IMG/VR virus record: IMGVR_UViG_3300021478_000216
Coordinates: 14,995-78,994 of that record
Length of the DNA: 64,000 bases
DNA from: a virus
Strand: one strand, 5' to 3'
In this document: in pieces, positions 30,516 through 58,396 of the stretch
Position numbering within the stretch: position 1 is the stretch's first letter
Layout: each line of letters begins with the position of its first letter
Position numbers and translations under genes: made by a program
The notes under the pieces: generated by a model
The model's database searches: none
The model's input: only the letters and a program-made list of their open reading frames with translations
What the model was told of the DNA's origin: nothing

Positions 30516-30718
30516 AATACGGTTTTAACCTCTTCCCAGTCTTCCTTGTATGGAGCGCTATCTTCGTCCACGTCTGCCATCCAGCCAAGAGAGTTACGGA
30601 TTGTGAAGCTCTCACCTGGGAGAAAGTCATGAACGAGAACCTTGCCTGAAGGCCAGTTTCGTCGACGCATCATGAAGCCTGCTTTGGCCTTTGCGAAGGC
30701 TTCTGGAGTGTTCATCAT
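30512..30718 (-). CDS. DUF2829-like hypothetical protein
   Basis: EAFAKAKAG..MRRRNW...EDWEEV. Confidence 0.55.
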   Translation of the reverse strand: MMNTPEAFAKAKAGFMMRRRNWPSGKVLVHDFLPGESFTIRNSLGWMADVDEDSAPYKEDWEEVKTVL

Positions 30719-31329: not shown

Positions 31330-31802
31330 CAGAATCCTGTGAAACTCAGCGAAGTCAGTGCGTTGCGTGCACGTTGCTTATCGGGATTAGACATGGGTTC
31401 GGCTGCTAGAGACTCTAGTACATCTAGAACGGTATCGAGCGGCGGTAGTGAATGAGGCGAATACCAGGCGGTTGTCTTCGGAGTCTCACTGACTCGTACA
31501 GCTGTAACCTCTGGATACAAGGCTACTGCCCGTTCATAGAACAGCTTCGCCATATTTTCAGCTGTAGGCTGTGCGATCGTGTCGTTGATCTGTCTGTGGT
31601 CGAACGTGTTGTCGAGCCAGGTCTTAAAGCGTCCTAGCTCACCGTAGTCACGTACGAAGCCTACATCGTCGAGTGCAGGACTTTCTAGATACAGTTCGAC
31701 CTCGTAATTGTGTCCATGCAAGCGTCCGCAAGGGTGACCTTCTACAAGATCATTGAGATAGTGCGCTGCTGAGAACTGAAATGTCTTACTGATGCGCCAC
31801 AT
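31329..31802 (-). CDS. queD: 6-carboxy-5,6,7,8-tetrahydropterin synthase
   Basis: Probable start MWRISKTFQFSAAH; CGRLHGHNY, DYGEL, FDH, PTAENMA, SETPKT. Confidence 0.93.
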   Translation of the reverse strand: MWRISKTFQFSAAHYLNDLVEGHPCGRLHGHNYEVELYLESPALDDVGFVRDYGELGRFKTWLDNTFDHRQINDTIAQPTAENMAKLFYERAVALYPEVTAVRVSETPKTTAWYSPHSLPPLDTVLDVLESLAAEPMSNPDKQRARNALTSLSFTGF

Positions 31803-31803
31803 G

Positions 31804-32184
31804 CTAGTATCCGATCGGAGGAGGCGTGGGTGTACGGCCGGTAGGAGAACCTTCGATACCGAGTTGCTTCGGACCGATAGCCTTGCGCTTAAGGTCGTCA
31901 GGCTTCCAAGTCTCGAATAGATGCTTGATACAGGTAGCGTAGTCGGGTCCGTCGATAAGGACACAGGTGCGCATATGTGTCGTCAGTGTCAGATCCGTAT
32001 GCGTGATACCTGCATGAATCGGGAAGATTCCGTCGAACACTTGGTGGAACCCCGCTTCGTATCGGAGTTCCGCATAACTGAGCTCCTTGCTAGCAATGAT
32101 ACGAACTTTCCCGTCAGGAAGCTGCATACCACAGATAGACCATTCGGGATTCGGGAACTGCGAGCTAAAGTCGTAATTAGGCAC
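31804..32184 (-). CDS. Hypothetical protein
   Basis: AGGAG RBS, 126 aa, operon packing. Confidence 0.6.
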   Translation of the reverse strand: MPNYDFSSQFPNPEWSICGMQLPDGKVRIIASKELSYAELRYEAGFHQVFDGIFPIHAGITHTDLTLTTHMRTCVLIDGPDYATCIKHLFETWKPDDLKRKAIGPKQLGIEGSPTGRTPTPPPIGY

Positions 32185-32329
32185 TGTGTCTCCTAGGTGC
32201 TGAAGATGTAGGCGGTAGGTCGGTCCAGTCGCATTCTCACGGGTACCATCTTCTGGTCTTGTACTACCCCGCTAAACCGTGTGCTGCCTACTCTTACCTC
32301 GCGACGTGGCCTACATCTTCATGGTCTAG

Positions 32330-32848
32330 CTAGAACGGACTATCGGTTTCGCTCTTCGGAGACCCGAGCTGGTCTTCGGAGAACATCCCGTAGCCGCGGA
32401 TCTCGATGTGTCGCTCTGGCATGTCAGGGAACTTCTCGACCTGCCGCTTGTTCTTACCGCGCCGGATAAAGAGCTCCTGACCTTCGTAGTACTCCGGCTC
32501 GGTCGGGACTTCGAGGTTGCCGTCCGAGTCGAGGTTGTCCTCGTAGGCGTTCTTGTTGCCCTTCTGAGAAGGCAGCGCCTTGAGAATGCCGACGATGGTG
32601 TACATCGCGCCTTCCCAGAGGCACGCGTTGGTGAAGTCGTGCCTGTTGGCGTACTCCTGCCAGCGTCCCGGAGTATCCTGGATAACGAAGTCGAAGTTGA
32701 GCATTGGCTTGCCAGAGTTGTTTTCCGACTCTGACTCGAGCAGCTCCACGCCGTGGATCACGGCGTGGTACTTGCCGATCGGCATCGGATCGAAGCTGCG
32801 GTCACCTGACGAAGCTTCCTGGTCGCTGAGTGAAACCCTGATTCCCAT
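32330..32848 (-). CDS. Putative single-stranded DNA-binding protein (DUF669-like)
   Basis: FDPMPIGKYHAVI...GKPMLNF; acidic C-terminus ending DSPF; next to AAA ATPase. Confidence 0.7.
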   Translation of the reverse strand: MGIRVSLSDQEASSGDRSFDPMPIGKYHAVIHGVELLESESENNSGKPMLNFDFVIQDTPGRWQEYANRHDFTNACLWEGAMYTIVGILKALPSQKGNKNAYEDNLDSDGNLEVPTEPEYYEGQELFIRRGKNKRQVEKFPDMPERHIEIRGYGMFSEDQLGSPKSETDSPF

Positions 32849-32884
32849 AGTTCCGTTTTCTCTTTCTGTACTAGTTACTTTGCC

Positions 32885-33721
32885 CTATCGGGCGGGTTCC
32901 TCTGCAGGCATACTGATGATCTGCCTGTAAAGGTCTTCGAGTTTAGGCTCCTGAATAACCCTCTCGAAGAGTCCGGTTCTTGACTTGGCCTGATAACCTT
33001 CAGTGAGGCCTGTCAAGAGAACGCGACGTTCTGCTTCGACGATCTTGGTTCGGCCTTCAGCGACCGTTGTGCGCTCCACAGCAAGGTAGAACACGTTGCT
33101 GAACATACCGCAGGCCTGATTCTTGAGCTTGCCGGGCAGGTCTGGGACGATCCAGTTGATACTGCGGTTGTCCTTCGCCTCAGCTTCGTGACAGGTTACG
33201 ATGAAGTTGACAGGCAGATCGCGGAAGTGCCTGAATAGGGTTCGCATCTGGCTAATCGATTCGCCCCATTCACGCATGCTCGGGACGTCGAAGTTAACCT
33301 CGCCGCCTCCAGGCCGACCCGAGATGAGGAGAGCTGACATGATATCGTTCATAGACAGCTTCTGTGCTTCGGTGCCAGTGTCGATCACGAGAGTCTTGAA
33401 CGGGATAGGCGTGCCGGAACCAGACAGCTTAGCTGCTGCCTTGTAGATCTGGTCGAACTGTGAGAACTTCCTGATGAAGGCCACCTGTGCGTCTGGAGCT
33501 TCCTTACGCAGGGTGTCCGCCTCTGCTTGGTCAGGTGTCATGAAGAGTACAGGTGTCATGCCTGGGATCTTCTGAGCCTGAGCTACCAGAGTTGTCTTAC
33601 CGACCCCCGGCTTGCCGTAGATGAGAGCCTTCATGTACTGTGGCTTGTCTCGGATAGGCGCTATAGGAACGCCTCCGAAGTCTGTCATAGTAGGGACTAG
33701 TGCGGTACTAACGTCGCTCAT
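32885..33721 (-). CDS. AAA ATPase (Sak4-like recombination protein)
   Basis: Walker A YGKPGVGKTT, Walker B LVIDT, TCHE. Confidence 0.8.
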   Translation of the reverse strand: MSDVSTALVPTMTDFGGVPIAPIRDKPQYMKALIYGKPGVGKTTLVAQAQKIPGMTPVLFMTPDQAEADTLRKEAPDAQVAFIRKFSQFDQIYKAAAKLSGSGTPIPFKTLVIDTGTEAQKLSMNDIMSALLISGRPGGGEVNFDVPSMREWGESISQMRTLFRHFRDLPVNFIVTCHEAEAKDNRSINWIVPDLPGKLKNQACGMFSNVFYLAVERTTVAEGRTKIVEAERRVLLTGLTEGYQAKSRTGLFERVIQEPKLEDLYRQIISMPAEEPAR

Positions 33722-34890
33722 GACTGCCGCCGTCTCTGTATATAGTACGGTTCTGACTTGACGAAGTCTGCTTCAAGATCTCCTGTCGGGTCTAGACCGC
33801 CAGAAGCTGTAAGACAGGGTAGCTGGAATGAACATGACTGACAGTTCGGTTGACTAGCGTTCTTGTATATAGCTGGTTCGCCAATCACCTCCTTAGCTTG
33901 TAGCAGTATACTACGGCCTGCTTCTTCTAGTTGTTCGGCTGTCTTGATCATAACGAAACGCCTAGAAAACTCAGGGCCGTGATTCTTGAGCCATTCTAGG
34001 TAGTCGTTGTACAGACCATGGCGATACGCTCTGTTGTCTTTACGTTCGAAGACTTGACGAGCTGTATGGTAGTCCGTGAGCTGTTGCTTGTTGACACTGT
34101 ACCAACGTCCTTGACCTGGAGTCTGCAATCTCCTGGGAGGCTTCGGGTAAGCCTTTCGGAACTGATTAAGGATAATCCCAGTAGCTGGGTATCCGTTCTG
34201 ACGCACACACCATAGGTACGAAGGAAGCTGGTCTTCTAGTTCTGGAAGTACTGAGTCTTCTTTGTACAAGTTGGCGGCTGATTTACTGTCTTCTACAAAG
34301 ATGAATCCTTCACGGTCTTCGAAGACTACATCGATACGACAGCTAAATACAACTGGAATGCCTGTGAACTGTCCTAGGATGTCATATGAATCCGGGAACT
34401 CGTTGTGCTTTCGATACCGTGCGATACAGTCCTTGCAGGCACAGTGAAGCTGGTTGCCCTGATCGTCAACAACTGGACACTCGAATTCACGCTCTACGAA
34501 TAGCGGCTTATAAGCCGAACGATCAAGACTCCGACACAGTTTGACGAGCATGCTGCGTAGAATACTGAGACGCTCGCCGTAATCGAGAGCTTCTTCTTCG
34601 TCCAGCTGATACTTTGCCGAACGAAGAAGGTAGTCATTTCGTTGGTGATTAGCTTCGGCTATAAGTGCATCCTGAGCAAACTTGTGCAAGTCTCCCAACG
34701 GTGTACGCCAAGTCTCAGGGTTGTACAGGACTTCCAGAGCCTTGTGCCAGACAGTACCATCTTCGAGAGGAGCTGGTCGCTTAATCGGTTCCCAGTTGTC
34801 TCGATAGCGCCAGTCCCACATGCGTCTGCATGTACGGTAACCACGAAGCTGAGACGAATGGATCTCATGAGTGAGAGTCACTAGGGCCAC
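33718..34890 (-). CDS. PD-(D/E)XK Cas4/RecB-like exonuclease
   Basis: SSQLRGYRTCRR, GTVWHKALE, RIDV...EDSK, QLPSY, CQSCSFQLPC. Confidence 0.8.
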   Translation of the reverse strand: MALVTLTHEIHSSQLRGYRTCRRMWDWRYRDNWEPIKRPAPLEDGTVWHKALEVLYNPETWRTPLGDLHKFAQDALIAEANHQRNDYLLRSAKYQLDEEEALDYGERLSILRSMLVKLCRSLDRSAYKPLFVEREFECPVVDDQGNQLHCACKDCIARYRKHNEFPDSYDILGQFTGIPVVFSCRIDVVFEDREGFIFVEDSKSAANLYKEDSVLPELEDQLPSYLWCVRQNGYPATGIILNQFRKAYPKPPRRLQTPGQGRWYSVNKQQLTDYHTARQVFERKDNRAYRHGLYNDYLEWLKNHGPEFSRRFVMIKTAEQLEEAGRSILLQAKEVIGEPAIYKNASQPNCQSCSFQLPCLTASGGLDPTGDLEADFVKSEPYYIQRRRQS

Positions 34891-35368
34891 CTTGCGTAGT
34901 ATCTGAGCCAGATCCCCAAGCTTCGTATTGGGCTACTCCCGGTGATGGAGGCTTCCAAGTCTCGACAGGTCTGCCTTCAACATAGCAGTCACCAGGATGC
35001 GGGCCAGTGCTGTAGATACATCCAGGCTTGTGATACTGAAGACTTGGAGGAGGACTTCCGGGGCTTGCAGAGGCTGCGATCCTCTTAAGATCAGTCAGAG
35101 AGCATATCTGGACAGGACGTCCAACCTTGTAACCAATAGCCTTCGCCAGCTGGGCAGCCTCTTCTATCTGCTGTTGATCGTACAGAGGCGCTACGTAACC
35201 TGTTTCTCCGAAACCATGAATCGGTAGCCCGAACTTAGGCATAGTCCCTGGGTATTCAGTGTCTCCCAGGTTCTGAGGCATGCCATGCTCTGCACAGTTG
35301 ATGATAGACGTCGTCGGCGGGAAACAGTCTATCGCACAAGAGCAGGACTTCGGTAGTTCTGGTGTCAT
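34865..35368 (-). CDS. Hypothetical Cys/His-containing protein
   Basis: 167 aa filling gap between queC and exonuclease. Confidence 0.5.
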   Translation of the reverse strand: MTPELPKSCSCAIDCFPPTTSIINCAEHGMPQNLGDTEYPGTMPKFGLPIHGFGETGYVAPLYDQQQIEEAAQLAKAIGYKVGRPVQICSLTDLKRIAASASPGSPPPSLQYHKPGCIYSTGPHPGDCYVEGRPVETWKPPSPGVAQYEAWGSGSDTTQGGPSDSHS

Positions 35369-35382
35369 CGGAGTTGTCGCCG

Positions 35383-36090
35383 TTACTTAGCCGCGACCGC
35401 TGTCTTCCAGAACTCGGTGTCCATGTACACCGTGGGGTCCTCCACCTTTGCTTCGTGAAAGGCTTCGAGGCGTTCGACGCAAGTGCCGCATCGTCCGCAG
35501 TGGGAAGTTCCGCCCTTGTAGCATGACCACGTGAGATCAATAGGAACGCGGAGTTCGCCTGCCCTCCTGGCGATGTCAGCCTTAGTCCTGAAGATGTAAG
35601 GAGTCCTGATTTCGAATCCTGGGTGAATAAATCCTTCGTTACCGATCTTGATAGCTGCCTCTAGGTTCCTGATAAACTCAGGCCTACAGTCAGGATAGAT
35701 CGCGTGGTCACCTGCATGAACCGCCGTGGCGACAAACTGAGCCTTGATGGAGATAGCCACTCCCGCCGCCATAGCTATCATGACCATGTTACGGTTCGGG
35801 ACAACCGTTGCCTTCATGCTCTCGGCATCGTAGCTGCCTTCCGGGACCTCTGCGTTAGGGTCTACCAGGGAGCTTGCGCTGGATACAATCGAACGTCCAT
35901 AAGACGGAATGTCTATGATCAGGTGGTGAAGACGAAGGGCTGAAGTGATAGCCCTTGCCTGGATAAGTTCCCTGATGTGACGCTGACCGTAGTTGAAGGA
36001 CACTACGTCTACGTCTGTTCCGCTGTTTACAAGATCGTACAGCATAGTGGTGCTGTCAAGTCCGCCGGATACGATTGCTATGCCACCCAT
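35383..36090 (-). CDS. queC: 7-cyano-7-deazaguanine (preQ0) synthase
   Basis: SGGLDST, FNYGQRH, VPNRN, YPDCR, TWSCY, HCGRCGTC. Confidence 0.96.
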   Translation of the reverse strand: MGGIAIVSGGLDSTTMLYDLVNSGTDVDVVSFNYGQRHIRELIQARAITSALRLHHLIIDIPSYGRSIVSSASSLVDPNAEVPEGSYDAESMKATVVPNRNMVMIAMAAGVAISIKAQFVATAVHAGDHAIYPDCRPEFIRNLEAAIKIGNEGFIHPGFEIRTPYIFRTKADIARRAGELRVPIDLTWSCYKGGTSHCGRCGTCVERLEAFHEAKVEDPTVYMDTEFWKTAVAAK

Positions 36091-36128
36091 AAGGTTTGCT
36101 CCTGGATTCTCGCTTTTCGTATAATATA

Positions 36129-36158
36129 ATTATACTACAAGAATCTAGGGAACAACAA
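36129..36158 (-). promoter_or_regulatory. Promoter, TTGTTG-N18-TATAAT upstream of queC
   Basis: Promoter family member in AT-rich gap. Confidence 0.6.
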
Positions 36159-36323
36159 TGGAGCCTTAAAGGAAATTATTCTGAAATTTCCCTTAATACA
36201 CTAGTCAACTAATGACCGCAAGCGTTGGACGCACAGTCGGTTACAATAGCGTGTACTATAGCAAAGATAGCTAGTCCTGTCAGGACTAGTGCACATATCA
36301 AACAGACAAGAAGTTCCCAGTCT

Positions 36324-36638
36324 CTATTCTTCATGCCTAACAGGCCCTCCTGTCCGAGTCCCGTTACGAGACAGAGTCACTTCCTTAGGTACAGACTTCA
36401 TGGTAAGCCAACGGAGCGGTTCTTCGATATTGTCCAGAGCTGGAAAGGTAACTGTTACCGTGTCACCTGTTAGGTTCGTGTCTTCGTTAAGCCAGTCTTC
36501 GTCCATACCGTCCCAGTACTCACGTATATACCGGTAGAACTCTTCCGCCTCAGCTAGGGCTCCTTCGTAGTCATCTTCGGCTATCATTTCCTGGATAGAG
36601 TCGAACTCTACAACTAGCGTCCAACGGCTCATTTCCAT
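36324..36638 (-). CDS. Acidic hypothetical protein
   Basis: AAGGAGAG RBS. Confidence 0.6.
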   Translation of the reverse strand: MEMSRWTLVVEFDSIQEMIAEDDYEGALAEAEEFYRYIREYWDGMDEDWLNEDTNLTGDTVTVTFPALDNIEEPLRWLTMKSVPKEVTLSRNGTRTGGPVRHEE

Positions 36639-36653
36639 GATACTCTCCTTATC

Positions 36654-36681
36654 AGGCCCGCCGGCGTGTTCCGGCGGGCCT
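36654..36681. terminator. Intergenic hairpin (possible terminator)
   Basis: Perfect 11-bp stem AGGCCCGCCGG/CCGGCGGGCCT. Confidence 0.6.
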
Positions 36682-36690
36682 CGTTGCTGA

Positions 36691-36921
36691 TTAAGATAAA
36701 CGTCGACCTGATGGGACTTGCTGACCGATGCCTTCGAGACCTTCTCGCAGCTCCTGAATACTGAAGCTAGGCAGCTTGATCTCGCCTTCGGGTTGAAGAT
36801 TGTGCCTAGTAGCTGGTTTAGTCTCTGGAGCAGACTTTGACTTGATGGTCAAGGTCTGGCTCGTGTAGTCGTAGATGACGATGATTGTGTCGAACTCCAT
36901 TGTCTTAACGGACATCGTCAT
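36691..36921 (-). CDS. Hypothetical protein
   Basis: GGAGG RBS. Confidence 0.55.
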   Translation of the reverse strand: MTMSVKTMEFDTIIVIYDYTSQTLTIKSKSAPETKPATRHNLQPEGEIKLPSFSIQELREGLEGIGQQVPSGRRLS

Positions 36922-37151
36922 GCTGCACCTCCGAGTGATACCTTCGCCAGTGCTGCCGGTAAGCCTTGCATGTTCGGAATCTCGTGCCGGTTGCCCATCC
37001 AGCGTGGACGATGCCGCAGGCTAGAAACGAAATTGAGCCCCAGTCGCTTTTTCTCCTCTCACCCCAAGGGCAGTAGAAGAACGTGCCACCTCGGATCGGA
37101 GCTGGAGGCTCTGGAGAAGACGGAACTAGCCTGTTATGATGAACAGCCATG

Positions 37152-37469
37152 TTAAGGCTGACCGTTCTGGGTAGCCTGCTTACCTTCTTGCGTCTGACAG
37201 AAGGCATCCCATTCAGGGATGCGCGTGATCGCGCCTGCGGCTTCGCGCGTCGTCGTGGCGAAGCCTACACCGTTGATACAGATCTCGACGATGTTCGGAT
37301 GGCCGTCGACGTTGAGGTAGAGCCCAACGTAGTTCGGATATGACGGTGATACGTTCTGCAGGTCATCGGCGACAGGGTTTCCGCTGGCGCAGCCGGCGAT
37401 GATTGCTGCCGCTGCGATGCCAGTACTGGCGACGCCAGCCCAGGTCAGGTCGCGCTTGTTAAGTTTCAT
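37152..37469 (-). CDS. Putative lipoprotein
   Basis: Basic N-terminus, hydrophobic core, lipobox-like IIAG-C. Confidence 0.65.
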   Translation of the reverse strand: MKLNKRDLTWAGVASTGIAAAAIIAGCASGNPVADDLQNVSPSYPNYVGLYLNVDGHPNIVEICINGVGFATTTREAAGAITRIPEWDAFCQTQEGKQATQNGQP

Positions 37470-37489
37470 GTTCCATTTCTCCTGATTAG

Positions 37490-38287
37490 TTACTTAAGTA
37501 CAGGCTTTCTGAGCACGATTGCCATCTTGTCTTCGGCGATGACTTGCCACCCGAGCTCTTTCGGATCGATAGCGTAGTTGCCGAGAATGATGTATGCGCC
37601 TGGGTGCATGCGATTGAGAACTGTTTTTTCCAAGTGTCTCGCCAGCTCGAGATGGACGAACGGACGGTTGAGCCATATCACGTCGGCGAGAATGTAGGGG
37701 ACCTTGACTTCACGAGCGTCTGCTACGAACGCACCGCCCTTGCAGCCCTTAGACTGCAATAGCTCGTTCGCGTCTCTCACGTATTCGGGGTTATAATCGA
37801 TACCTCCTGCATCGAGGCCGAATACCTTCTCGGCTATGACTAGCTTAGTGCCTGGACCGCATCCGACTTCGAGAAATTTGAGCCTTCGAGGTGCGAGAAC
37901 GTCGTTGCACTTATCGATCGGATCGATATCCGTAACAACAGCGTCGAGCAGCTTGCCGAACGTGCTAATCGGGTAGGGCTTGAACATCCACGATGAACCG
38001 TCGATAGTGTTGTCGGTCGTGACGGCTTCCATTGCCAGCATCTCGTTGATCAGATTACGATGTTCGGCACTCTTGCACCAGCTGAGATCGAAGCCTGCAG
38101 CGTCTACGATACCTTCAGAACTGCCTATGTCTGCTTGGAGTCCTGGACCTAGCTCCTCGAATAGAACTTCGAACAGAGCGTTCGGGATAAACGCCCAGCA
38201 GCCGTCGATCGAGATCTTGGTGAAGTCCGCTTCTTCTTCGGTGCCCGGTTCCGTCTCGACTAGAACTGACCTAGTTCGATAGAGCAT
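37490..38287 (-). CDS. Class I SAM-dependent methyltransferase
   Basis: FLEVGCGPG motif I, GIDYN, VADA, DVIWLNRPF, HPGAYII. Confidence 0.8.
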   Translation of the reverse strand: MLYRTRSVLVETEPGTEEEADFTKISIDGCWAFIPNALFEVLFEELGPGLQADIGSSEGIVDAAGFDLSWCKSAEHRNLINEMLAMEAVTTDNTIDGSSWMFKPYPISTFGKLLDAVVTDIDPIDKCNDVLAPRRLKFLEVGCGPGTKLVIAEKVFGLDAGGIDYNPEYVRDANELLQSKGCKGGAFVADAREVKVPYILADVIWLNRPFVHLELARHLEKTVLNRMHPGAYIILGNYAIDPKELGWQVIAEDKMAIVLRKPVLK

Positions 38288-38289
38288 TG

Positions 38290-38730
38290 TTACTCCTGTT
38301 CTATGATGCGGCAGATACTGTATCCCTGCCGTCGGAAGATCTCGTTTTGTACTGCTCTGTAGAGAGGACGTTCTTCCATCCAGATAAGCGCATGTTTGTC
38401 AGTTACCTGATTGATCTCTGACTCCATAGCATCCTGTGCCATCTCGCCACCGAGTCCTGCTGCGAAGTGAAACATAGACTGAAGTACAGCTGACTGGTAC
38501 CTAAAGGCATGCTTTAGCAGAAAAGCTTTCAGGTTAACGAGATGGTCGTCTTCTATGTCGACGATGCGAAGGATTTCTCGATCACCTGACTGCCAGACTT
38601 CACCCTGCTCGAGTAGCTCGTCTACATGGTAGTGTCGTTCTGGCATCTCCGTAGGCTCTCTAGTCATTGCTTCGACAAAGTTTTTCATGATCTGATCGAA
38701 GACCTGACTCGGTGTACCTTCGTAGATCAT
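38290..38730 (-). CDS. Hypothetical protein
   Basis: 146 aa; ATGA overlap with upstream gene. Confidence 0.6.
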   Translation of the reverse strand: MIYEGTPSQVFDQIMKNFVEAMTREPTEMPERHYHVDELLEQGEVWQSGDREILRIVDIEDDHLVNLKAFLLKHAFRYQSAVLQSMFHFAAGLGGEMAQDAMESEINQVTDKHALIWMEERPLYRAVQNEIFRRQGYSICRIIEQE

Positions 38731-38960
38731 GGATCTAGATATCGAGCTGCGAACCGCTCAATAGTCATACCGCCCTGCCGAGTATCGTCAGTTACGATAA
38801 CCGTTAGATCCCGGTACTCTTTCGGGTCGTCGGTCTCGGGTGCGTCCTTGCCCCAGAATGCCGAAGCTAGAGCCTTCATGAAAGCTGCTGCCGTAGGACT
38901 TGACTCGCTGACAGGGACGTAATGAACGCCGTCGATGATGACTTTGTCAGGTTTGCTCAT
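38727..38960 (-). CDS. Hypothetical protein
   Basis: 77 aa, tight packing. Confidence 0.55.
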   Translation of the reverse strand: MSKPDKVIIDGVHYVPVSESSPTAAAFMKALASAFWGKDAPETDDPKEYRDLTVIVTDDTRQGGMTIERFAARYLDP

Positions 38961-39136
38961 TAGTATCCTGGTTCCTTACGACGTTCAGCTTTCTCCATAG
39001 GCACGTTCTCTTCTTCAGTAAACGCTGCGGTAGCATGCTCGATAGCCTTCATTAGACGTTCGCCTGCTGCGCGGAGTTCTTCAGCGTACTCTTCGTGGGC
39101 CTGACGTAGTGCTCTTCTGTATTCGGGTAGATTCAC
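38960..39136 (-). CDS. 58-aa helical hypothetical protein (not in ORF track)
   Basis: MNLPEYRRALRQAHEEYAEEL..., fills gap with 1-nt overlap. Confidence 0.45.
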   Translation of the reverse strand: MNLPEYRRALRQAHEEYAEELRAAGERLMKAIEHATAAFTEEENVPMEKAERRKEPGY

Positions 39137-39328
39137 TGCTACATCACTTCCTATGTTCCATCAGGACGCTTTGTACTCCGATCATCGGGACTAGAAGAAT
39201 ATCTTCGTCTATATCGAGCCTCCACTGGACTGCTTCCGTTATTAGGTGGTCTGCTTCGATCACGTTGATATGTCCGTCATTGTACTTAATCGTTACCTTG
39301 AGTCGTTTCATAGGACTTATATTGGTAC

Positions 39329-39877
39329 TCATTCCCCTTGAAACCATCCCTTCTGGACACCGAGATTCATCATCATGGCTGGTGTAACGAAGTGCTCGCT
39401 GCCGACTGTGCCAGGGAACATTGCCGCTTGTGCTACAGCGTCGCAGTGCTCGACCAGAGCGCTACAGTCCCACCACTTGTCGCTGTTAAATAGAGATGTG
39501 AGATCCTTGGTTAGAGAAGCCTTGAAGAGAGCTAGCATCAGAGCAGGATAGACCGCGAGGTCGTATCCTCCGCCGACTAGGTTCATGGCTGTCTTAGCTG
39601 CAACGGTACGTTGAGCTACTGTCAGCGGCTGTCCTGTAGCCCAGATGACGTTTTCTCGAGGAGCTGCGTCGTATTTAACCTTCGGCCAGCGAGCTTCAAC
39701 AGTCATGCCACCGCCTACGTACATTACAGCGTGACCTGCCCAGCTCTGTGTAGCCATACGGATGACGCTAGCGAAAGGTCCGCTGCCGTGAGCTACGCCC
39801 CAGGTTCCCGCCAGTGGAGGGTAAGGAACGTTGCTGAACTGGAAGCCTTCTGGCGGTCCCTGGTAGTTACGAGTCAT
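39329..39877 (-). CDS. Permuted papain-like NlpC/P60 (YaeF/YiiX-like) hydrolase
   Basis: His motif WAGHAVMYVG precedes YD and WDCSALV Cys motif. Confidence 0.7.
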   Translation of the reverse strand: MTRNYQGPPEGFQFSNVPYPPLAGTWGVAHGSGPFASVIRMATQSWAGHAVMYVGGGMTVEARWPKVKYDAAPRENVIWATGQPLTVAQRTVAAKTAMNLVGGGYDLAVYPALMLALFKASLTKDLTSLFNSDKWWDCSALVEHCDAVAQAAMFPGTVGSEHFVTPAMMMNLGVQKGWFQGE

Positions 39878-40164
39878 TACTAGGGGGTATCCTTTCCTGA
39901 TTGATCATGTTCTTGTCGGTGCGGTGCTGACAAGTGCAGTTCGTGTCTATGCATGACTGATGCAGTGAGATAGCTTCTGACTCCGGATCAGGATGCTCTT
40001 CACTCGGATCCAGCTTGAAGACTTCGCCGGCTCGTCTGCAGGGGTGACAGATCATCATTACTCCTAGTGATGTAGTTCCTGAGCAATGTACGATAGCCAG
40101 AGGATGATAATGAGTAGTTCGCCGATTATGACTCCGAGTAGTAGCATGAGTGCTCCGAACTTAC

Positions 40165-40473
40165 TCATGCGAACAGCCTGAGTCGTATATTATCGCCCAA
40201 GTCGATATCGTGCATTGAATCCGTGCGTGCGGTAGAGTCGTTCATAAGTCTGTCAGCTACTTCATGAGCTGCCTGAATCTTAAAACCTGCACGGACTAGA
40301 CGTGACATTAGATTAGCCTTCTCGAAGGTTCGGGTCGGCCACTCTATAGGCGTTCCGGACCCTGCATCCTTGTGCCTTTCGAATGGTTTTAGCCATCCCA
40401 TTCGATACCAGTAGTCCATTTGGCGATTCGTAATTCGTGCACGACTGCACAGTTCCTTAGATGTATAGGACAT
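40165..40473 (-). CDS. MerR-like HTH DNA-binding protein
   Basis: Probable start MSYTSKELCSRARITNRQMDYWYRMGWLKP...GSG. Confidence 0.7.
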   Translation of the reverse strand: MSYTSKELCSRARITNRQMDYWYRMGWLKPFERHKDAGSGTPIEWPTRTFEKANLMSRLVRAGFKIQAAHEVADRLMNDSTARTDSMHDIDLGDNIRLRLFA

Positions 40474-41261
40474 CAGTGTGCTCTCTGGTCGCCCCAGGCT
40501 AGGATATGTAGACGTGACGAGACATTGTAGCCTGCTCGAATTCCACGATCTGCTACGAACGTCATCTTGTCCTGTAGAGCCTGCGGAGTCGTGCCTTCCG
40601 GCATTACCCATATACGCCACGGAGGGATCTTGCACAGAGCTGCGATCTGGCTGATCTCGGAGAAGTCTCCAGGGTTCTTGACCACGAACTTGAAGAACGC
40701 CTTGTTCGAGCCAGCAAAGAAATTCAGGACGTCTAGGTTTCGCCTCACCCTGAGGCTGTTGCCACTAGTAGCCAGCTTAGGCGAGACGGCATATCCACCC
40801 ACAGCTTCGTGTAGAAACGGGCTAGGTCTACGAATACCTGCCGTTTCTATATTCGTCTCGATACCTGCCTCTAGTAGAGTATTGACTAGTAGTCCTACAG
40901 GGTCTCCGAGAGACTCTTCAACTGTCGTCTCAGGTCTCTGCATAGACACAGGAACCTGAGCTAGTGGTTCACCACCTGATAGGACTACGAGGCTAGCCCC
41001 TGTAGCACAGAAGATAGCCTGACTAGCGACGTCGCCTACGCTCATTTCGTGGACTTCTTCGGTGTAGTCGTATACCTTGCGGCTCTGGTGGTGCGCAGCG
41101 ATAGGGTCTGAGAAGGCCCATGTATAGGGTGTATCGCACCATGTACAGCGCAGCGGGCAGATTGCTAGTCGAACGAAAGCACAGCGTCGGCCCGTCGCAG
41201 GGCCTTCACCCTGGATCGTGGGCCCGAACACTTCATTTACCAGTAGCGTCTTGCTTGGCAT
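40473..41261 (-). CDS. queE: 7-carboxy-7-deazaguanine synthase (radical SAM)
   Basis: EVFGPTIQGEG, CPLRCTWCDT, LSGGEP, ETAG, SPKL, RLH. Confidence 0.95.
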   Translation of the reverse strand: MPSKTLLVNEVFGPTIQGEGPATGRRCAFVRLAICPLRCTWCDTPYTWAFSDPIAAHHQSRKVYDYTEEVHEMSVGDVASQAIFCATGASLVVLSGGEPLAQVPVSMQRPETTVEESLGDPVGLLVNTLLEAGIETNIETAGIRRPSPFLHEAVGGYAVSPKLATSGNSLRVRRNLDVLNFFAGSNKAFFKFVVKNPGDFSEISQIAALCKIPPWRIWVMPEGTTPQALQDKMTFVADRGIRAGYNVSSRLHILAWGDQRAH

Positions 41262-43726: not shown

Positions 43727-43845
43727 GGCTCTCCCCTTCCTTCGCCGGAGTGCTTTAGCATGTAACCGAGGAAGATAACGAATACTAGGAGGACTAGAAC
43801 ACAGGCTCCGCAGATGGCTATAAAGAGCCAGAAGTACCAGGGCAT
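43708..43845 (-). CDS. Single-TM micro-protein
   Basis: MPWYFWLFIAICGACVLVLLVFVIFLGYML. Confidence 0.5.
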   Translation of the reverse strand: MPWYFWLFIAICGACVLVLLVFVIFLGYMLKHSGEGRGEPWEMTS

Positions 43846-44213
43846 CAAGCGCCTCCCAAGGTTTCGACTTTGACAAGCTGTCGGCGTCGTTGCGCTTCTA
43901 CCGTGGTCTCGACACCTAGGAACCCATAGGCGTCCTTTTCTTCCTTGGTCAGTAGGTTGGCCCAATCAAACAAGGCCTCTTCGCAGACATGACGCCACAA
44001 CGAGGGGTTCGCGCTGCAGTGTGCACACACTATAGACTCGTTGAGGTGCATGAAGACTTTAAGGTTCTCTACGTGTACCTCTTCGAGTGGAACTGTAATT
44101 GTTACAGGTCCGGTGCTAGTGAAGGGAGCCTTTGAGGTTTGGTGACTATACCGGAACCCTCTAGGAGAGAGCGGCGATATCTCGAAGAAAGGCTCTGGAA
44201 AGCACTCACCCAT
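43845..44213 (-). CDS. Hypothetical protein (CxxC)
   Basis: 122 aa, tight packing. Confidence 0.5.
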   Translation of the reverse strand: MGECFPEPFFEISPLSPRGFRYSHQTSKAPFTSTGPVTITVPLEEVHVENLKVFMHLNESIVCAHCSANPSLWRHVCEEALFDWANLLTKEEKDAYGFLGVETTVEAQRRRQLVKVETLGGA

Positions 44214-44365
44214 TAGACGTCGTCATCCATTTCAGGATGATCGCACAGAGCTTCGACCAGATCGTGTAGCCAGTTATGCATTGCTAACACCTCCCGATTA
44301 TTTCGTATTTAGTATTTGGATTACTGGCCTATAGTTGAAAAGAACCTGGCTGTTTACTGAATTGC

Positions 44366-44746
44366 TTATACGGCTTCTTCTAGGAGTTCTTCCAGGCGCG
44401 CTTCGAGTATTTCAACGCGAGACTCCAAATCCGTGATACGTTCCTGTTGCGCCATCCATCGCTGACCACCCTGAGCAAAGGCTGCACGCGTCGGAGGCTT
44501 AATGACTAGCCACTCGCTGGGGATCCCGCGGCCTCCACGGATCTTCTGCTGTATGCAACCCATGGTTCGAAGTCTGCGCATAACCGGAGTGTAAATGCTG
44601 ATCGAATAACCGCACTGCTCAAGAAGGTAGGTCGTGTAGCCACGATAGATAGCAACTCCGTCAACTCGACTCTGAGCGGCTTCGTTCATGGCGTCGTAGA
44701 CCTTGCAGCACTGCTCGTACAGACGAGCGTCAACAGCTGTAGGCAT
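44366..44746 (-). CDS. Putative winged-helix DNA-binding protein
   Basis: YTPVMRRLRTMGCIQQKIRGG..SEW plus coiled-coil tail; GAGGAG RBS. Confidence 0.6.
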   Translation of the reverse strand: MPTAVDARLYEQCCKVYDAMNEAAQSRVDGVAIYRGYTTYLLEQCGYSISIYTPVMRRLRTMGCIQQKIRGGRGIPSEWLVIKPPTRAAFAQGGQRWMAQQERITDLESRVEILEARLEELLEEAV

Positions 44747-44759
44747 TACCGCTCCTCTC

Positions 44760-45660
44760 TTACGTCACACTGCTCAGGTATTCTGTGAGGTACATTAAGC
44801 CTGCACATCCAGCAACCTTCGGTTGGCCTGGGAGCACCTCCCTCTGCACCGCCACGCATGAACAGGATCAGCAGAGCAGGACCGGCTTGCCTTTTCGCGA
44901 TCGACCATCCATAGGAGGTGCTCCCAGGGTTATGACCGGGCTGCCAGCTGTCCACATTACGCATCTGGCAGCCCGGTGATTGAGTCGCCGGCTCGATACT
45001 AGCGCACGTGAAGGCGTGCTCTCGACTTCGGACCTTACTCAAGGGTCCTCGAGGTTGAGTATTCCTGCCGGCTACGATTGTAGATCCCGGGAGGGCTGAG
45101 CCGCTCTTGGTCTCGTCAGGGGGAAGACGGACGCACGCCGCCGGGCCGGCGCAATGCCTAGGTTGGACCTGACCTTCGTATCCTCTTGTGTGTGCCCCAT
45201 TTACGGATAGTCGACCTAGGAAGGCTCTGCAGCAGAGTCGTACTGCAGAGCCTCGAGCCGAAACCTGGATTCGAACCAGTGCGTTGCGATCCGAGCGCAA
45301 ACTCGGTGCTGACGTCCGACTACGTCGTCTCGGCACGACGAAGGGGACACCAGAGGTGTGGTTCAGCATAGAACGGATGTTCAAATTCATCCCACCGCTC
45401 AGCCTGCGCTTCACCTGCGTTGTCCCCTCCGTCTTTCGTCCGACTTTCGGTTCCTTTAGTCTCAAGGCATCTTGGGTTGTCCCTTGAGCCTTGGAACCTA
45501 GTAGCTGGACGCTTGGGTCCTGCTCGGGCGTGTGGTCGTCATCTGGGAGCTCCCAGACGGATCGTTGCCACTTCCCCGAGCAGGACGTTTAGTCCTGTTC
45601 GGTCGTGTCGAGCTCGCAGGTTGATCAATCCTACCCGCCGCATCCTACCGAACAGGACGT
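44760..45660 (-). ncRNA. Array of about 11 consecutive structured RNA modules
   Basis: Back-to-back closing stems (several perfect 11-15 bp) with short linkers; G-U pairs resolve on the minus strand. Confidence 0.65.
45257..45334 (-). ncRNA. tRNA-like element (non-canonical)
   Basis: Acceptor GCCGAGA/TTTCGGC, T-arm CTGG-TTCGAAT-CCAG, D-like arm GACGT/ACGTC, anticodon-like arm CCGAG/CTCGG with atypical loop; no CCA. Confidence 0.55.
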
Positions 45661-46266
45661 CTATTCGGCCTCGTCGAAATCTTCGTCTGCCGCAAGGTCC
45701 TCGACCGCAGCAGCGTCCTCGAGATCCGGGTCCTCAGCGGCGTCAGCAGCTTCGCCTTCCGGCTTCGCCTTAGGCTGACCAGGCTGGCGCTTCGGGCGAT
45801 CCTTCCACCACTTGAGGGCGTCTTCCTCGACGAGACCGGGCCGCGTGAGCGTCTCGTTGGTGACGGAGTGTGTCTGGATCTCGTCGAACATGTTGCCGGC
45901 CTTGTCGAAGTGCTTGACAGGCATGCCGTTGGATGCCGACTTGCGTACCAGTCCGTAGACCTGCACAGGGCTCATGCTCTCGCCTGCCAGCCCGAGCTCC
46001 ACCAGCTTGTGCCGGAAGGCTACAGGGGAGATGTAGCCTTCGGGGAGATCAGGCTTGCGCCTCTCCGGCTTGTCCTTCGCCTTCTTTGACTTGGTCGCCG
46101 CGGCCAGCTGCTCCTCGAGCTCGACGATTCGAGCCTTCAGCTCATCGACGGTCGGCTCGGCCTCGGTAGCTTCGTCTGTTACGAAGTCGGTCTCGGTCAT
46201 CTCGGTTGTCCCTTCTTGCTCGTCCGCCGACACAGGCTGTTGAGCGGCTCTACGCCTGCTTGCCAT
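45661..46266 (-). CDS. Acidic protein with putative DNA-binding domain (distant member of paralog family)
   Basis: ISPVAF...MSPVQVYGLVRK core, acidic termini, AGGAG RBS, GC3-rich. Confidence 0.7.
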   Translation of the reverse strand: MASRRRAAQQPVSADEQEGTTEMTETDFVTDEATEAEPTVDELKARIVELEEQLAAATKSKKAKDKPERRKPDLPEGYISPVAFRHKLVELGLAGESMSPVQVYGLVRKSASNGMPVKHFDKAGNMFDEIQTHSVTNETLTRPGLVEEDALKWWKDRPKRQPGQPKAKPEGEAADAAEDPDLEDAAAVEDLAADEDFDEAE

Positions 46267-46316
46267 GATCAGCTCCTGTTGTCCCTAGTCAGCTCCACAT
46301 TTCTGCGTATACTAAT

Positions 46317-46346
46317 ATTATAGCTGTAGCCTCAAGGCGCTTGCAA
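46317..46346 (-). promoter_or_regulatory. Promoter, TTGCAA-N18-TATAAT
   Basis: Promoter family member upstream of 45661-46266 and the RNA array. Confidence 0.75.
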
Positions 46347-46396
46347 GAGGCTACTGAGGGGAAAAATTCTTGAATTTTCGCGGACTGTGTTTGTGA

Positions 46397-46807
46397 CTAG
46401 AGTACAGCGATAATTACGGCCATAATTATAACCAAGACTATTATCACATTGATAGACTCTTGAGCAGTCAGCTGCTGTGGTGGTCGCTTCTTGACTGGAG
46501 CCTGCTTAGGCTCCTTGACGGCTACTGTAGTGATAGGCTCTGCGTACAGGTCAGTCATTCGGTCCTTGGCGTAAGCGTGTCCTGTCCTGATAAACTCACT
46601 GCGCCACCAGTCATAGGTCTGTACTATGTTGACCTTATGCAAGTCCTCGTAGATCGCGTCCGTCGTGGTCCACACAGGACAGTTACTGCATACCTTCAGA
46701 GAACCGTTTTCAGGCCGAACTATACGACAGGTGTAGTTCGAACTTGGGCCGTGTCGATAGTTCTGGCAAGTGCCTCGGAACTTATCCTGATCTACTTCGA
46801 TAGTCAT
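46397..46807 (-). CDS. Hypothetical protein with C-terminal TM anchor
   Basis: Cys motifs, hydrophobic C-terminus. Confidence 0.55.
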   Translation of the reverse strand: MTIEVDQDKFRGTCQNYRHGPSSNYTCRIVRPENGSLKVCSNCPVWTTTDAIYEDLHKVNIVQTYDWWRSEFIRTGHAYAKDRMTDLYAEPITTVAVKEPKQAPVKKRPPQQLTAQESINVIIVLVIIMAVIIAVL

Positions 46808-47127
46808 GACTCATCATCGGTCTCTTCCCGCTCGAACTTGAGCAGGACGTAGGTATTGCCTGGCTGAAGGTGTCGAGATTCGTTGTTCACTTTGACCTCC
46901 AGCGGGTTCTTTGCACTATTTGGAACGGCTATAGTAGAAGCTGTCACATGGAGTCCTCGGACACGTGCAGTACGTCGCGCTAGGAGTACGAAGCTTTCAG
47001 CCATGCACCGGAAGTCCTTCTTCTCAACTAGGAGACGCTCCGTACCATCAGTCCACTCGTTCCAAGGGTAGGCTGGTGGACGACCTAGACGGACAGTGCG
47101 GTCTTCGTTCGGGTAGTAGTTAGTCAT
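46804..47127 (-). CDS. Hypothetical protein (GRPPAYPWNEW motif)
   Basis: AAGGAAGG RBS, 107 aa. Confidence 0.6.
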   Translation of the reverse strand: MTNYYPNEDRTVRLGRPPAYPWNEWTDGTERLLVEKKDFRCMAESFVLLARRTARVRGLHVTASTIAVPNSAKNPLEVKVNNESRHLQPGNTYVLLKFEREETDDES

Positions 47128-48380: not shown

Positions 48381-49007
48381 GGATCGGGTTCCTTTCAGTT
48401 GTTACTGCAGGCGCAGGTTGCGCCCCAAACCGGGACGTCTGTCTCCAGACGCCCCGGAGTCTTGAGGACTACTGAAGGTTAGAGACCTTGTAGCGTCCAT
48501 GTGTCGGTCTGAGACTTGCGAAGTTCCTGGAGTTCCCAGTTACTCTGGGCGGGGTCTGGGCCCTGCGAGTTACTCGCGCCTCTGTTCATGACATCACTGT
48601 CCAGATACTCGTCTTAGTATCCCACAGCTCCCGCATCTCCCAGCCGCTCAGCCATATAGGTTTGTCCGGCCCTGTGGGGGTGCTATCGCCGTTACTGATA
48701 CTCGCGCCCTTCATATATTTCCTTCTGTTGTCTATACCGAGTTTCTCGGCACTAGCCAGTCGGGTAGCGCTGGCATGGTCTGGGTGTCCGCGAATCCATG
48801 TTCGTGAGACACCCTCACAGGCCACGGTGCCTGTGAGCCTAGCTGCATCCCTTCGTACACTTCTAGCGGTGGGATGATCTGTTGCTCCGGTTACTAGTTG
48901 GAATTCTAATATAGTTCACTTTTGACTATTAGGATACCTTAGAGGCCTCACCTCCTTCCGTTCTGGATTTGGTGATCTTTAGTTATACACATCGAGTGAG
49001 TTTCGCC

Positions 49008-49286
49008 TCAGCCTCTGGACCTGGGAAACTTGATGGTGAATTCGACTCGCTGACCAGGCATCCACTGCTGGACACAGAGGTCAACTAGTTCGTCGGAACA
49101 TCCCCTGAGTCGCTTCCTGATGTCAGCTGCCGATCTGACAGGCTCGCCGTCAAGGCTAGCGAGCATCACCTGGAGCTCTCTGATACCAGTCTGCGGGAAG
49201 GGTTTGATCTTCAGGCCGTAGCATCCCCAAGGGTTCTCGTCGGTCCCGTTGATCCTAACGGTGATCTCGACTTCGTCGTCAGCCAT
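49008..49286 (-). CDS. Hypothetical protein
   Basis: 92 aa, coupled to upstream gene. Confidence 0.6.
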   Translation of the reverse strand: MADDEVEITVRINGTDENPWGCYGLKIKPFPQTGIRELQVMLASLDGEPVRSAADIRKRLRGCSDELVDLCVQQWMPGQRVEFTIKFPRSRG

Positions 49287-57505: not shown

Positions 57506-57516
57506 GTTACTCTCCG

Positions 57517-57708
57517 TTACAGATTCTCGAAGAACGCGTTCATCTTGTCGGACGCAAGCAGTTCGTCTACCTGGCGTGCCTCGAAGATCTCGCAGGCTCT
57601 CTGGACGGTATCTTTGGTGTATCCATCAGGTTCGTCCATGATCTTCTCAAGGAACTCGACGGCTGAAGCCTTAAGAGCTTCCGTGCTGATCCATGTCTTA
57701 CCTATCAT
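57517..57708 (-). CDS. Hypothetical protein
   Basis: 63 aa, first ORF after promoter. Confidence 0.55.
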   Translation of the reverse strand: MIGKTWISTEALKASAVEFLEKIMDEPDGYTKDTVQRACEIFEARQVDELLASDKMNAFFENL

Positions 57709-57819
57709 TTCGTTCCCCTTCTAGAGGATCTTCCCTCCAGACCGTGCTCCAGAACAGGGGTGGTGAACTGGAGCACGGACTGCAAGGAAGGTACCCAAGA
57801 GCAAACGTTGTTTCTTTTT

Positions 57820-57849
57820 ATTATATTGCATATCCTATTGTAAAAGCTA
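57820..57849 (-). promoter_or_regulatory. Promoter, TAGCTT-N18-TATAAT
   Basis: Promoter family member. Confidence 0.8.
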
Positions 57850-57936
57850 GTCTCCAAAAGCAAGATCTTTTTGGCCTTCCTGATTCTGGCGACCACGGCA
57901 AGGTACGCCCTCGCGGAACGTACCTCACCGTAGTGG

Positions 57937-58122
57937 TCAGGGCATTCTGTCTCGCATCTCGGTTAGTTGGTCTCCTGGTGTGGTGAATACTTCGTCGTCA
58001 CCGAGGAACCTCACGGCGTAAGTGTCGTCGTCGAGGACTTCATCGATCTGGACAGGAGCCGAGAGTGCCTCGACGTCCTTGACGTGGTAGATCGCCTTGT
58101 CGCCGGCCTTGAGGTCAAGCAT
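57937..58122 (-). CDS. Small SH3-like hypothetical protein
   Basis: Probable start MLDLKAGDKAIY. Confidence 0.5.
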   Translation of the reverse strand: MLDLKAGDKAIYHVKDVEALSAPVQIDEVLDDDTYAVRFLGDDEVFTTPGDQLTEMRDRMP

Positions 58123-58396
58123 CTTCCGCATCCTTCTCGATCTTGTTCCGGAGGTCCTCCCTGATGAGATCCTCCAGTTCCGAAGCTTCGCCTTTCGGCA
58201 AGGCGAAGATAGCGTCACGTACTTTCGCGTACGCGTTAGCTGTCACCATGCATATTGAGTGGTACGCACCGTCTTCGAACTGAATGACAATGTGAGCGAC
58301 GGTACCGCCGAAATCCACAGGTTCGTCGATACCGCACCAGTTACACTCCAGCGGCTTGGTCATCTTCGGTATTCCCTTCGACTTCTTCCTTAGCAA
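58115..58396 (-). CDS. Hypothetical protein
   Basis: CNWC motif. Confidence 0.5.
   Translation of the reverse strand: MLRKKSKGIPKMTKPLECNWCGIDEPVDFGGTVAHIVIQFEDGAYHSICMVTANAYAKVRDAIFALPKGEASELEDLIREDLRNKIEKDAEDA

Follow-up and report, generated by a model that had tools for sequence, protein, structure and literature searches.

The element described here is a 914-nucleotide (nt) array of small structured units at positions 44747–45660 of a 64,000-nt stretch of viral DNA (hereafter, the window), which is part of the 78,994-base IMG/VR virus record IMGVR_UViG_3300021478_000216. The array lies between a gene for an acidic protein and a gene for a winged helix–turn–helix (wHTH) protein, both on the minus strand. 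Comparison with related loci shows base pairing to be under selection on the transcribed strand, and shows the units to be cassettes, each with a closing helix of its own (at most 18 base pairs, bp), that are gained, lost, reordered and exchanged. It also shows that stop codons are selected against in one reading frame; the peptide encoded by this frame is, by its substitution pattern, barely constrained. Structured RNA together with a stop-free frame whose peptide is barely constrained is an unusual combination, and the open frame is its new element. The reading preferred here, tentatively and with somewhat less than even confidence, is that of a clade-specific, RNA-level array of cassettes with transfer RNA (tRNA) mimics, on which translation acts as an added constraint in cis. 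RNA is taken to be the primary function because pairing, loop motifs and tRNA mimicry are conserved across deep divergence and the peptide is not. Since the frame is kept open and its peptide is unconstrained, the RNA reading stands but has to be combined with selection for translatability. An array of distinct structured units, one of them tRNA-like, had been proposed earlier from the single sequence (the original prediction), and comparative covariation and conservation now bear this out.

The minus strand of the array folds to −414.6 kcal/mol, compared with −346.7 ± 9.4 kcal/mol in dinucleotide shuffles (z = −7.2), and the plus strand gives z = −7.6; folding is better than in shuffles on both strands. 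A tiling of the region by 11 self-closing units had also been proposed. This stands for the eight units with minus-strand z-scores between −3.1 and −7.2 and, with z = −2.0, less firmly for the tRNA-like unit, but the remaining two are not significant (Table 1). Linkers between the units are 0–15 nt long, and the first three units start with ACGUCCUG, ACGUCCUG and GCGUCCAG, as originally read. The gene (minus) strand is more stable than its complement by 4–43 kcal/mol in 10 of the 10 relatives tested. The gene strand has 10 isolated A·C mismatches, which correspond to G·U pairs on the opposite strand, and 211 G·U pairs, whereas its complement has 36 and 169, respectively; T loops of the tRNA type read correctly on the gene strand only. 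The stability and the mismatch counts agree with the earlier assignment of the minus strand as the structured, transcribed direction, and the evidence points to the array acting as RNA on that strand.

Repeat searches also agreed with the original description of the region as neither a tandem repeat nor an array of clustered regularly interspaced short palindromic repeats (CRISPR). Tandem Repeats Finder returned only an 11-nt doublet and no tandem repeat in the array, and the direct repeats in it are two-copy stem bases of 11–20 nt, with no CRISPR-like repeats and no iterons. A CRISPR array and the RNA repeats of type III antitoxins were rejected as candidates, there being no regular direct repeat of one unit. 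A protein sponge of the CsrB/RsmZ type was rejected as well; the number of GGA words equals both the compositional expectation and the number on the antisense strand, and these words are not enriched in loops.

Table 1. Features of the array and its immediate surroundings, in 5′ to 3′ order on the minus strand (z, minus-strand folding score against shuffles; aa, amino acids)
Feature	Coordinates	Strand	z	Description
Promoter-like site	46317–46346	−		TTGCAA-18-TATAAT, 10/12, consensus match only; upstream of the acidic-protein gene
Acidic-protein gene	45661–46266	−		201 aa; acidic N- and C-terminal tails, conserved core; always 5′ of the array
H1 hairpin	45592–45658	−	−5.4	12-bp closing helix with GUCCUG...CAGGAC base; variable top
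H2 hairpin	45517–45586	−	−7.2	H1 type; 12-bp closing helix
H3 unit	45437–45511	−	−4.9	Helix-closed; CGUCC...GGACG base
M4	45337–45433	−	−4.6	Most sequence-conserved module
Open frame	44746–45414	−		222 codons, from GUG in M4 to UAA overlapping the wHTH AUG (UAAUG)
tRNA mimic	45256–45334	−	−2.0 (scored over 45255–45336)	
H6 hairpin	45221–45254	−	−6.8	Perfect 14 bp; directly 3′ of the tRNA mimic
U7 and U8	45073–45220	−	−0.8 (45157–45220); +0.5 (45073–45156)	Weakly structured
M9	44987–45072	−	−3.1	Three-way unit; GCCGGC/GCCGGC closure
M10 hairpin	44935–44977	−	−5.4	13 bp, 13–17-nt loop; found in seven lineages
M11 long hairpin	44827–44928	−	−4.9	16-bp outer helix; in eight lineages
Tail	44747–44826	−	+0.8	Unstructured; holds the wHTH ribosome-binding site and the last 27 codons of the open frame
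wHTH gene	44366–44746	−		126-aa winged-helix protein, long C-terminal helix; always 3′ of the array

Relatives were gathered by protein-guided scans, which yielded 11 distinct phage or metagenome loci (designated by L numbers). The gene order (acidic gene, array, wHTH gene) is kept in 11 loci, and the arrays span 201–1026 nt (L002, 1026 nt; L015, 933 nt; L016, 924 nt; L019, 723 nt; L018, 716 nt; L009, 522 nt; L008, 463 nt; L010–L012, about 200 nt). These arrays fold into rows of helix-closed units, joined by short A/C-rich linkers, typically YCAAAC. M9 is followed by M10 in the window and M10 by M9 in L018; in L016, M10 stands immediately before M11, M9 is not recognisable and two extra units are present. 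M4 is 94% identical between the window and L016, though the flanking proteins are only about 70% identical; its basal 21 pairs are nearly invariant in five lineages, and it has two apex variants, the distribution of which cuts across overall relatedness. Such a picture fits an array of independent cassettes swapped by recombination. One large multi-domain non-coding RNA, the other form that had been suggested for the region, is rejected because the order of modules is permuted; relatives add, drop, reorder and swap them. Exact-pattern scans of viral contigs with the M9 core and an M4 22-mer retrieved known relatives only, and the three matches to the M9 pattern in 185,579 species genomes, which lacked further similarity or synteny, were taken as chance. 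In L017, a 2-kb metagenome contig, positions 1–960, upstream of a partial M9 and M11, contain neither a tRNA mimic nor anything that matches the acidic gene; this part has several long open frames, the longest of 239 codons, and its folding is that of ordinary sequence, and it is suspected to be unrelated coding DNA, from a chimeric assembly or a recombinant relative.

Compensatory changes support the pairing. In M11, aligned over eight lineages, 94.6% of cells are paired and 20 of the 30 pairs show two-sided change, compared with 8.9 ± 2.0 in shuffled alignments (0 of 500 reaching this number) and 0–5 when the partners are slid. Two-sided change is found in five of the 14 pairs of M10 (seven lineages) and, with no more than three close relatives compared, in four pairs of H6. 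Over the whole array from M4 onward, the three close relatives have 18 two-sided pairs, as against 6.8 ± 2.1 shuffled (0 of 500) and 3–6 slid. Divergence of the array is about 0.2 per site, compared with 0.27–0.53 at synonymous sites of the flanking genes.

Modules differ in how widely and in what form they are kept. H1 has stops in all frames and is untranslated; hairpins with the GUCCUG...CAGGAC base are present in one to five copies per array among relatives. H2 is conserved in L002, with compensatory changes in its inner helix, and H3 is found in L002 and L015 with a diverged interior. The sequence of U7 and U8 is conserved in the same two lineages, and the CCUAGG closing helix of 45157–45220 and the GCCGGCCCGGCGGC hairpin are kept. 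The core of M9 is found in the window, L002, L015, L018, L019 and L008, and partially in L017. It includes a 5-bp hairpin with the invariant loop CUUGAGYAA, which can pair with an upstream ACUCA in a predicted pseudoknot. The stem of this hairpin covaries (GGACC/GGUCC, GCGCC/GGCGC, GCGUC/GACGC), and one pair of the proposed pseudoknot changes from A-U to G-C in L018 and L008. In M11, the inner helices flank GUCGAUCGCG, which is conserved, and a (G/A)UCCUG motif in the interior.

Several similarities between modules were noted besides. The apical helix of H2 (CUGGGAGCUCCCAG; 45543–45556) is a miniature of the M11 closing helix (44828–44838 and 44917–44927), a resemblance which suggests that modules arose from one another by duplication. 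The interior of M11 (44850–44883) repeats motifs of the 5′ arms of H1 and H2 (G/A-UCCUG-YUC; bases 45593–45610 and 45516–45525) and could pair with the 3′ arms of these hairpins across about 700 nt; the inner (G/A)UCCUG is present in M11 of nearly all relatives. The density of GUCCUG is 2.8 per kb in the arrays and 0.55 per kb in the window, a difference of about five times.

The tRNA mimic of the window has an 8-bp acceptor stem and a 4-bp T stem with a canonical UUCGAAU loop, and no CCA is encoded; the GGUUCGAAUCC-type T-arm loop is exact at 45266–45276 (minus strand), and GGUUCGA T loops are present in seven related arrays. A 5-bp D-like stem lacks the connector and has a 6-nt D loop, the anticodon position is occupied by a 6-nt loop, the discriminator base is U and the variable region is 11 nt long with at most two pairs. 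Both the acceptor stem and the D stem have two-sided changes relative to L002, a lineage in which another base stands in place of U33. A canonical tRNA was rejected on account of the 8/4 rather than 7/5 division of the stems, the 6-nt loop at the anticodon position and the lack of a match by ARAGORN at default settings or by Rfam at the gathering score. In the default ARAGORN search, no tRNA or transfer-messenger RNA (tmRNA) was found anywhere in the 64-kb window, the mimic being detected only at a lowered threshold; the best Rfam family for the mimic was tRNA-Sec, which at 21.1 bits (E = 0.26) fell short of its gathering score of 47.

tRNA mimicry recurs in the relatives on other scaffolds. 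L015 is about 80% identical to the window over the rest of the array, but carries a different, unrelated mimic at the same position. This second family is found in L015, L016, L018 and L009, and as a minihelix in L010–L012; it lacks the anticodon arm, has G3:U70 and A73, and ends in GUCCAC. G3:U70 is present in four of the five aligned mimics, and the family covaries. In tRNA-Ala and tmRNA, G3:U70 and A73 make up the alanine identity set, and the mimics of five lineages have it. The alanine-type mimics share this set with tmRNA and are contiguous elements of about 67 nt; tmRNA itself was rejected, as ARAGORN found none in the window or the 11 loci and Rfam none. Class-II-like units, in which the anticodon position reads GCG and UUA, are also present in L016 and L009. 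ARAGORN made two weak calls in the relatives: in L016, a tRNA that has a long variable arm and the anticodon GCG, and in L009, a tRNA that has a stop anticodon. One or more tRNA mimics in which the T arm is canonical are found in most arrays, namely in all those of at least about 0.46 kb.

The open frame passes through the tRNA mimic and all later modules; H1–H3 lie outside it. The longest open frame in the array of the window has 280 codons, compared with 110 ± 30 in dinucleotide shuffles (0 of 500 as long), and a long frame is likewise present in L002, L015, L016, L018, L008 and L009, with shuffle fractions of 0.002–0.02. Over seven lineages the frame is open for 150–226 codons, and its stop lies at −25 to +3 nt relative to the wHTH start. 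In the window, in L002 and in L015 the stop is part of UAAUG on that start, and in L016 it is part of AUGA; L008, L009 and L018 have it 2–19 nt before the start. All five M4-bearing lineages have an in-frame GUG (45414–45412 in the window) 9–11 nt behind a Shine–Dalgarno-like GGAGGGG or GAAGGGG in the 5′ arm of M4; since the 3′ arm supplies the complementary CCCCUUC, the start region is predicted to be sequestered in a 13-bp helix. The open reading frame (ORF) of the gene callers (P0039) starts at the same GUG. Insertions and deletions relative to L002 downstream of M4 are 3, 3 and 9 nt long, and the 75-nt extra module of L016 also preserves the frame. The continuity of the frame through the tRNA mimic also speaks for a large part of the transcript remaining uncut at that point.

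These properties would be expected of a purely cis-acting leader ORF gating the wHTH and replication genes, in which M4 would hide the ribosome-binding site, ribosomes would unwind one stable hairpin after another and terminate on the AUG of the wHTH gene, and no small RNAs would be released. The placement of the Shine–Dalgarno sequence and GUG in one invariant arm of M4 and of their complement in the other, a frame open in at least seven lineages with a stop that overlaps or abuts the wHTH start, length changes in multiples of three, even for the insertion of a whole module, and the lack of a terminator in the region are all accounted for by such a leader. It leaves unexplained, however, the tRNA mimics with their canonical T loops and, often, the alanine set, the pseudoknotted unit with invariant loop bases and the rapid turnover of cassettes; moreover, the wHTH gene has a strong, unstructured ribosome-binding site of its own, and H1–H3 are not part of the frame. 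A leader of this kind, acting in cis alone, is considered unlikely, though a serious contender.

The substitution pattern in most of the frame is not that of a coding sequence. Substitutions at codon positions 1/2/3 number 35/43/45, 42/46/53 and 36/31/35, and a comparison of L016 with L018 is equally flat. The ratio of non-synonymous to synonymous substitution rates (dN/dS) is 0.54–0.72 in the open frame, compared with 0.22 in the acidic gene and 0.08–0.09 in the wHTH gene. Between M4 and U8, 18 changed codons are synonymous and 102 non-synonymous, the pattern being flat for the first 340 nt. The last 27 codons differ: in three close relatives, 12 of the 17 substitutions there are at the third position and synonymous change accounts for 10 of the 16 changed codons. 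A clear coding-type pattern is confined to this tail, and M9 shows a weaker one. The final part of the tail (44779–44826, the last 16 codons or so) encodes Cys-X2-Cys-X5-His-X5-Cys, a motif confined to the closest relatives of the window, and could represent a small zinc-knuckle-like peptide. With regard to protein-level conservation of ORF 44746–45465, which the original prediction had named as an outcome at odds with its RNA reading, the frame is indeed kept open in at least seven lineages, but the peptide is almost unconstrained.

An ordinary gene at 45414–44746 is quite improbable. Its product would be basic, fast-evolving and for the most part disordered, with a Cys/His motif at the C terminus, and the structure of its mRNA would be secondary. 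It would explain the open frame, the Shine–Dalgarno/GUG start and the gene-like packing, the homologous ORFs of 195 and 187 aa in two further lineages and those of 187–226 aa called in further contigs, the third-position changes in the tail, and an in-frame dN/dS somewhat below that of the other two frames. The flat substitutions over the first 340 nt are at odds with it, however, as is an amino-acid identity (68–69%) below the nucleotide identity (about 80%); the codon-usage score of the frame is 0.017, compared with 0.10–0.46 for genes, and GC content is flat over codon positions. The permuted order of modules would not be tolerable for a folded protein, the peptide would include translated tRNA-like sequence, it has no match in Pfam, PHROG or Atlas, and the C-terminal motif does not extend beyond the closest relatives.

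A DNA-level element, such as an origin or a set of single-strand initiation hairpins, or a replication-priming transcript like ColE1 RNA II, is a very improbable explanation. The array heads the replication module, and the model of the wHTH protein (mean pLDDT, the predicted local distance difference test, 86.8) has as its best Foldseek rows the N-terminal domains of RepA_N-type initiators (5kbj, 4pql; E about 2e-3, TM-score 0.47); the lambda O gene and RepA_N genes likewise contain the origin within an open frame, the peptide of which is poorly conserved. These structural matches are marginal, however, and the PadR/MarR regulators in the next rows score nearly equally. The asymmetry of pairing fits one strand only, canonical T arms are sensible only in RNA, and the size range of 0.2–1.0 kb and the reshuffled content do not suit such an element. 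An origin of the iteron type was rejected outright, as there are no iterons or tandem repeats and the GC content of the array (0.59–0.61) is above the genome mean (about 0.53), with no AT-rich stretch. A decaying tRNA cluster or selfish palindromic insertions without present function are hardly credible: the mimics are degenerate by standard detectors, the copy number of hairpins varies and some units are not significant, but the array is at the same place in every relative, evolves more slowly than neighbouring synonymous sites, maintains its helices by two-sided changes over large divergence and is kept open in frame, and the H1 hairpin type was not seen dispersed in the window. The last point follows from an exact search of the 64 kb for GUCCUG with CAGGAC 25–55 nt later, which gave one match, H1 itself (0.22 expected); H2, with arms 58 nt apart, falls outside this pattern.

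In the preferred reading of an RNA-level cassette array, an early operon on the minus strand would comprise, in order, a promoter, the acidic-protein gene, the array, the wHTH gene and replication genes. The promoter-like site at 46346–46317, a consensus match close to the position given in the original prediction, is presumed to be the start of the transcript bearing the array, and no intrinsic terminator was found in 43800–46900. The cassettes would function at the RNA level; host enzymes or defence proteins that recognise tRNA would be engaged by the tRNA mimics and by the 12-bp minihelix-like hairpins. A fraction of the precursor may be cut at these mimics and hairpins, releasing stable small RNAs; release by RNase P or RNase Z would be plausible. 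Occasional ribosomes would start when M4 opens and then run to the wHTH start, and by running through the frame they would not be released too early or cause polarity on the replication genes, and the translation of wHTH would be coupled. A further elaboration, in which exchangeable cassettes occupy a translatable, sequence-free frame and ribosomes gated by the Shine–Dalgarno hairpin choose between a replication-coupled mRNA and small RNAs that, as tRNA mimics, would serve as decoys for tRNA-directed defence or processing enzymes of the host, is speculative and rather unlikely.

Some observations weigh against this reading. A selected open frame running through the mimic is hard to square with efficient cleavage there, and the coding-type substitution pattern of the tail, and perhaps of M9, makes a functional peptide possible. 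The tRNA mimics fail standard detectors, and two of the 11 units (45157–45220 and 45073–45156) fold no better than shuffles. The comparative sample is small, with three to eight related lineages per module. In addition, template switching can renew perfect palindromes in DNA and so inflate the number of compensatory changes, H6 being the clearest case.

Rfam at the gathering score had no match in the 64-kb window, at E ≤ 10 no relevant or usable match in 44600–45800, and at E ≤ 0.1 none in nine related loci. Polycistrons of irregular tRNAs and allo-tRNAs of the 8/4 type, attributed to Acidobacteria, have been described in forest and peat soil metatranscriptomes, and a non-decoding role was proposed for the irregular tRNA polycistrons (Mukai et al. 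2017, PMC5389517; review PMC7609411). Tandem irregular tRNA-like units that miss the acceptor/D connector, some of them with G3:U70, are common to those polycistrons and the array. With allo-tRNAs the window mimic shares a 12-bp acceptor branch split 8/4, as seen in the fold and the Rfam alignment and with acceptor pairs that covary with L002; unlike them, it has no long variable arm and no long D stem with a tetraloop. The habitat is presumably similar too, to judge from the sample types that the identifiers of the relatives suggest. The present array differs in that tRNA mimics are a minority of its units, it belongs to a phage operon and an open frame passes through the mimic. The resemblance, compared by description, is a lead only.

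Phage T4 has a cluster of tRNA genes co-transcribed with the stable species 1 and 2 RNAs. Like the array, the T4 region is a phage polycistron in which tRNA-shaped units stand beside other structured RNAs with short linkers; unlike it, the window has no functional tRNA according to ARAGORN over the 64 kb, and the units here are inside an open frame. GOLLD, ROOL and YrlA (a bacterial Y RNA) are large or modular structured RNAs, frequent in phages and often tied to tRNA-like elements. The array differs from these in lacking an Rfam match even at E = 10 and in being modular and reshuffled, rather than one conserved fold.

The two proteins that flank the array belong to no Pfam or PHROG family, and homologues of both exist in metagenomes. 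Alignment of the acidic protein revealed two invariant parts, the core and a C-terminal E-x-F-x-EAE motif preceded by a variable acidic stretch; this tail is reminiscent of the protein-recruiting C-terminal tails of single-strand-binding proteins. The core of its AlphaFold model has a pLDDT of about 90, and a Foldseek search returned weak winged-helix-like rows only (E > 0.4). None of the 38 window proteins scanned with Pfam was a partner in RNA function of the kinds looked for (Ro60, RtcB, RNases, nucleotidyltransferase).

Structural genes occupy the plus strand up to about 25 kb of the window and are followed by a long minus-strand early/replication arm, in which the array sits. This arm encodes a family-A DNA polymerase (26437–28992, minus strand), the N-terminal domain of which belongs to the uracil-DNA-glycosylase superfamily, as well as a RecA-like ATPase, a PD-(D/E)XK nuclease, an SNF2 helicase and a DUF3631 protein. 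Genes for FolE, QueD, QueC and a radical-SAM (QueE-like) protein are scattered over 29083–41261 on the same strand, a set which indicates 7-deazaguanine modification of DNA. A blastn search with 2.1 kb of the locus gave no match in 50,697 phage records. The phage, which is uncultivated, and the contigs of its relatives are taken, from the contig identifiers, to come from soil, peat and rhizosphere samples. Acidobacteria as the host would be a guess from habitat; a search for prophages with the wHTH profile in 401 Acidobacteriaceae genomes found nothing.

Other gaps in the window were inspected as well. At 32185–32329 (minus strand), one unit with a 13-bp closing helix (z = −3.2) fills the gap upstream of queD/folE and has a design like that of the array modules. 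The gap at 48381–49285 (z = −2.8) was rejected as a second array. So was 57506–58389 (minus strand), 0.9 kb without a long ORF, which was judged not to be a module array in spite of z = −7.0; viewed by eye from the fold, it appears to contain small ORFs, a strong terminator-type hairpin, an AT-rich promoter and a 5′-untranslated-region hairpin of about 19 bp.

The non-coding RNA of phages is poorly charted, and RNA-based counter-defence has been recognised only recently. The locus is a compact case, backed by covariation, in which RNA cassettes are exchanged as anti-defence protein genes are, tRNA mimicry recurs on different scaffolds at one genomic position, and selection on RNA structure and on an open frame acts on the same 0.7 kb. 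It may explain the source of the irregular-tRNA polycistrons in forest and peat metatranscriptomes. Should the modules be released, they would be candidate tRNA-like decoys; should translation of the frame serve only to protect or gate the RNA, the regulatory principle would be an unusual one.

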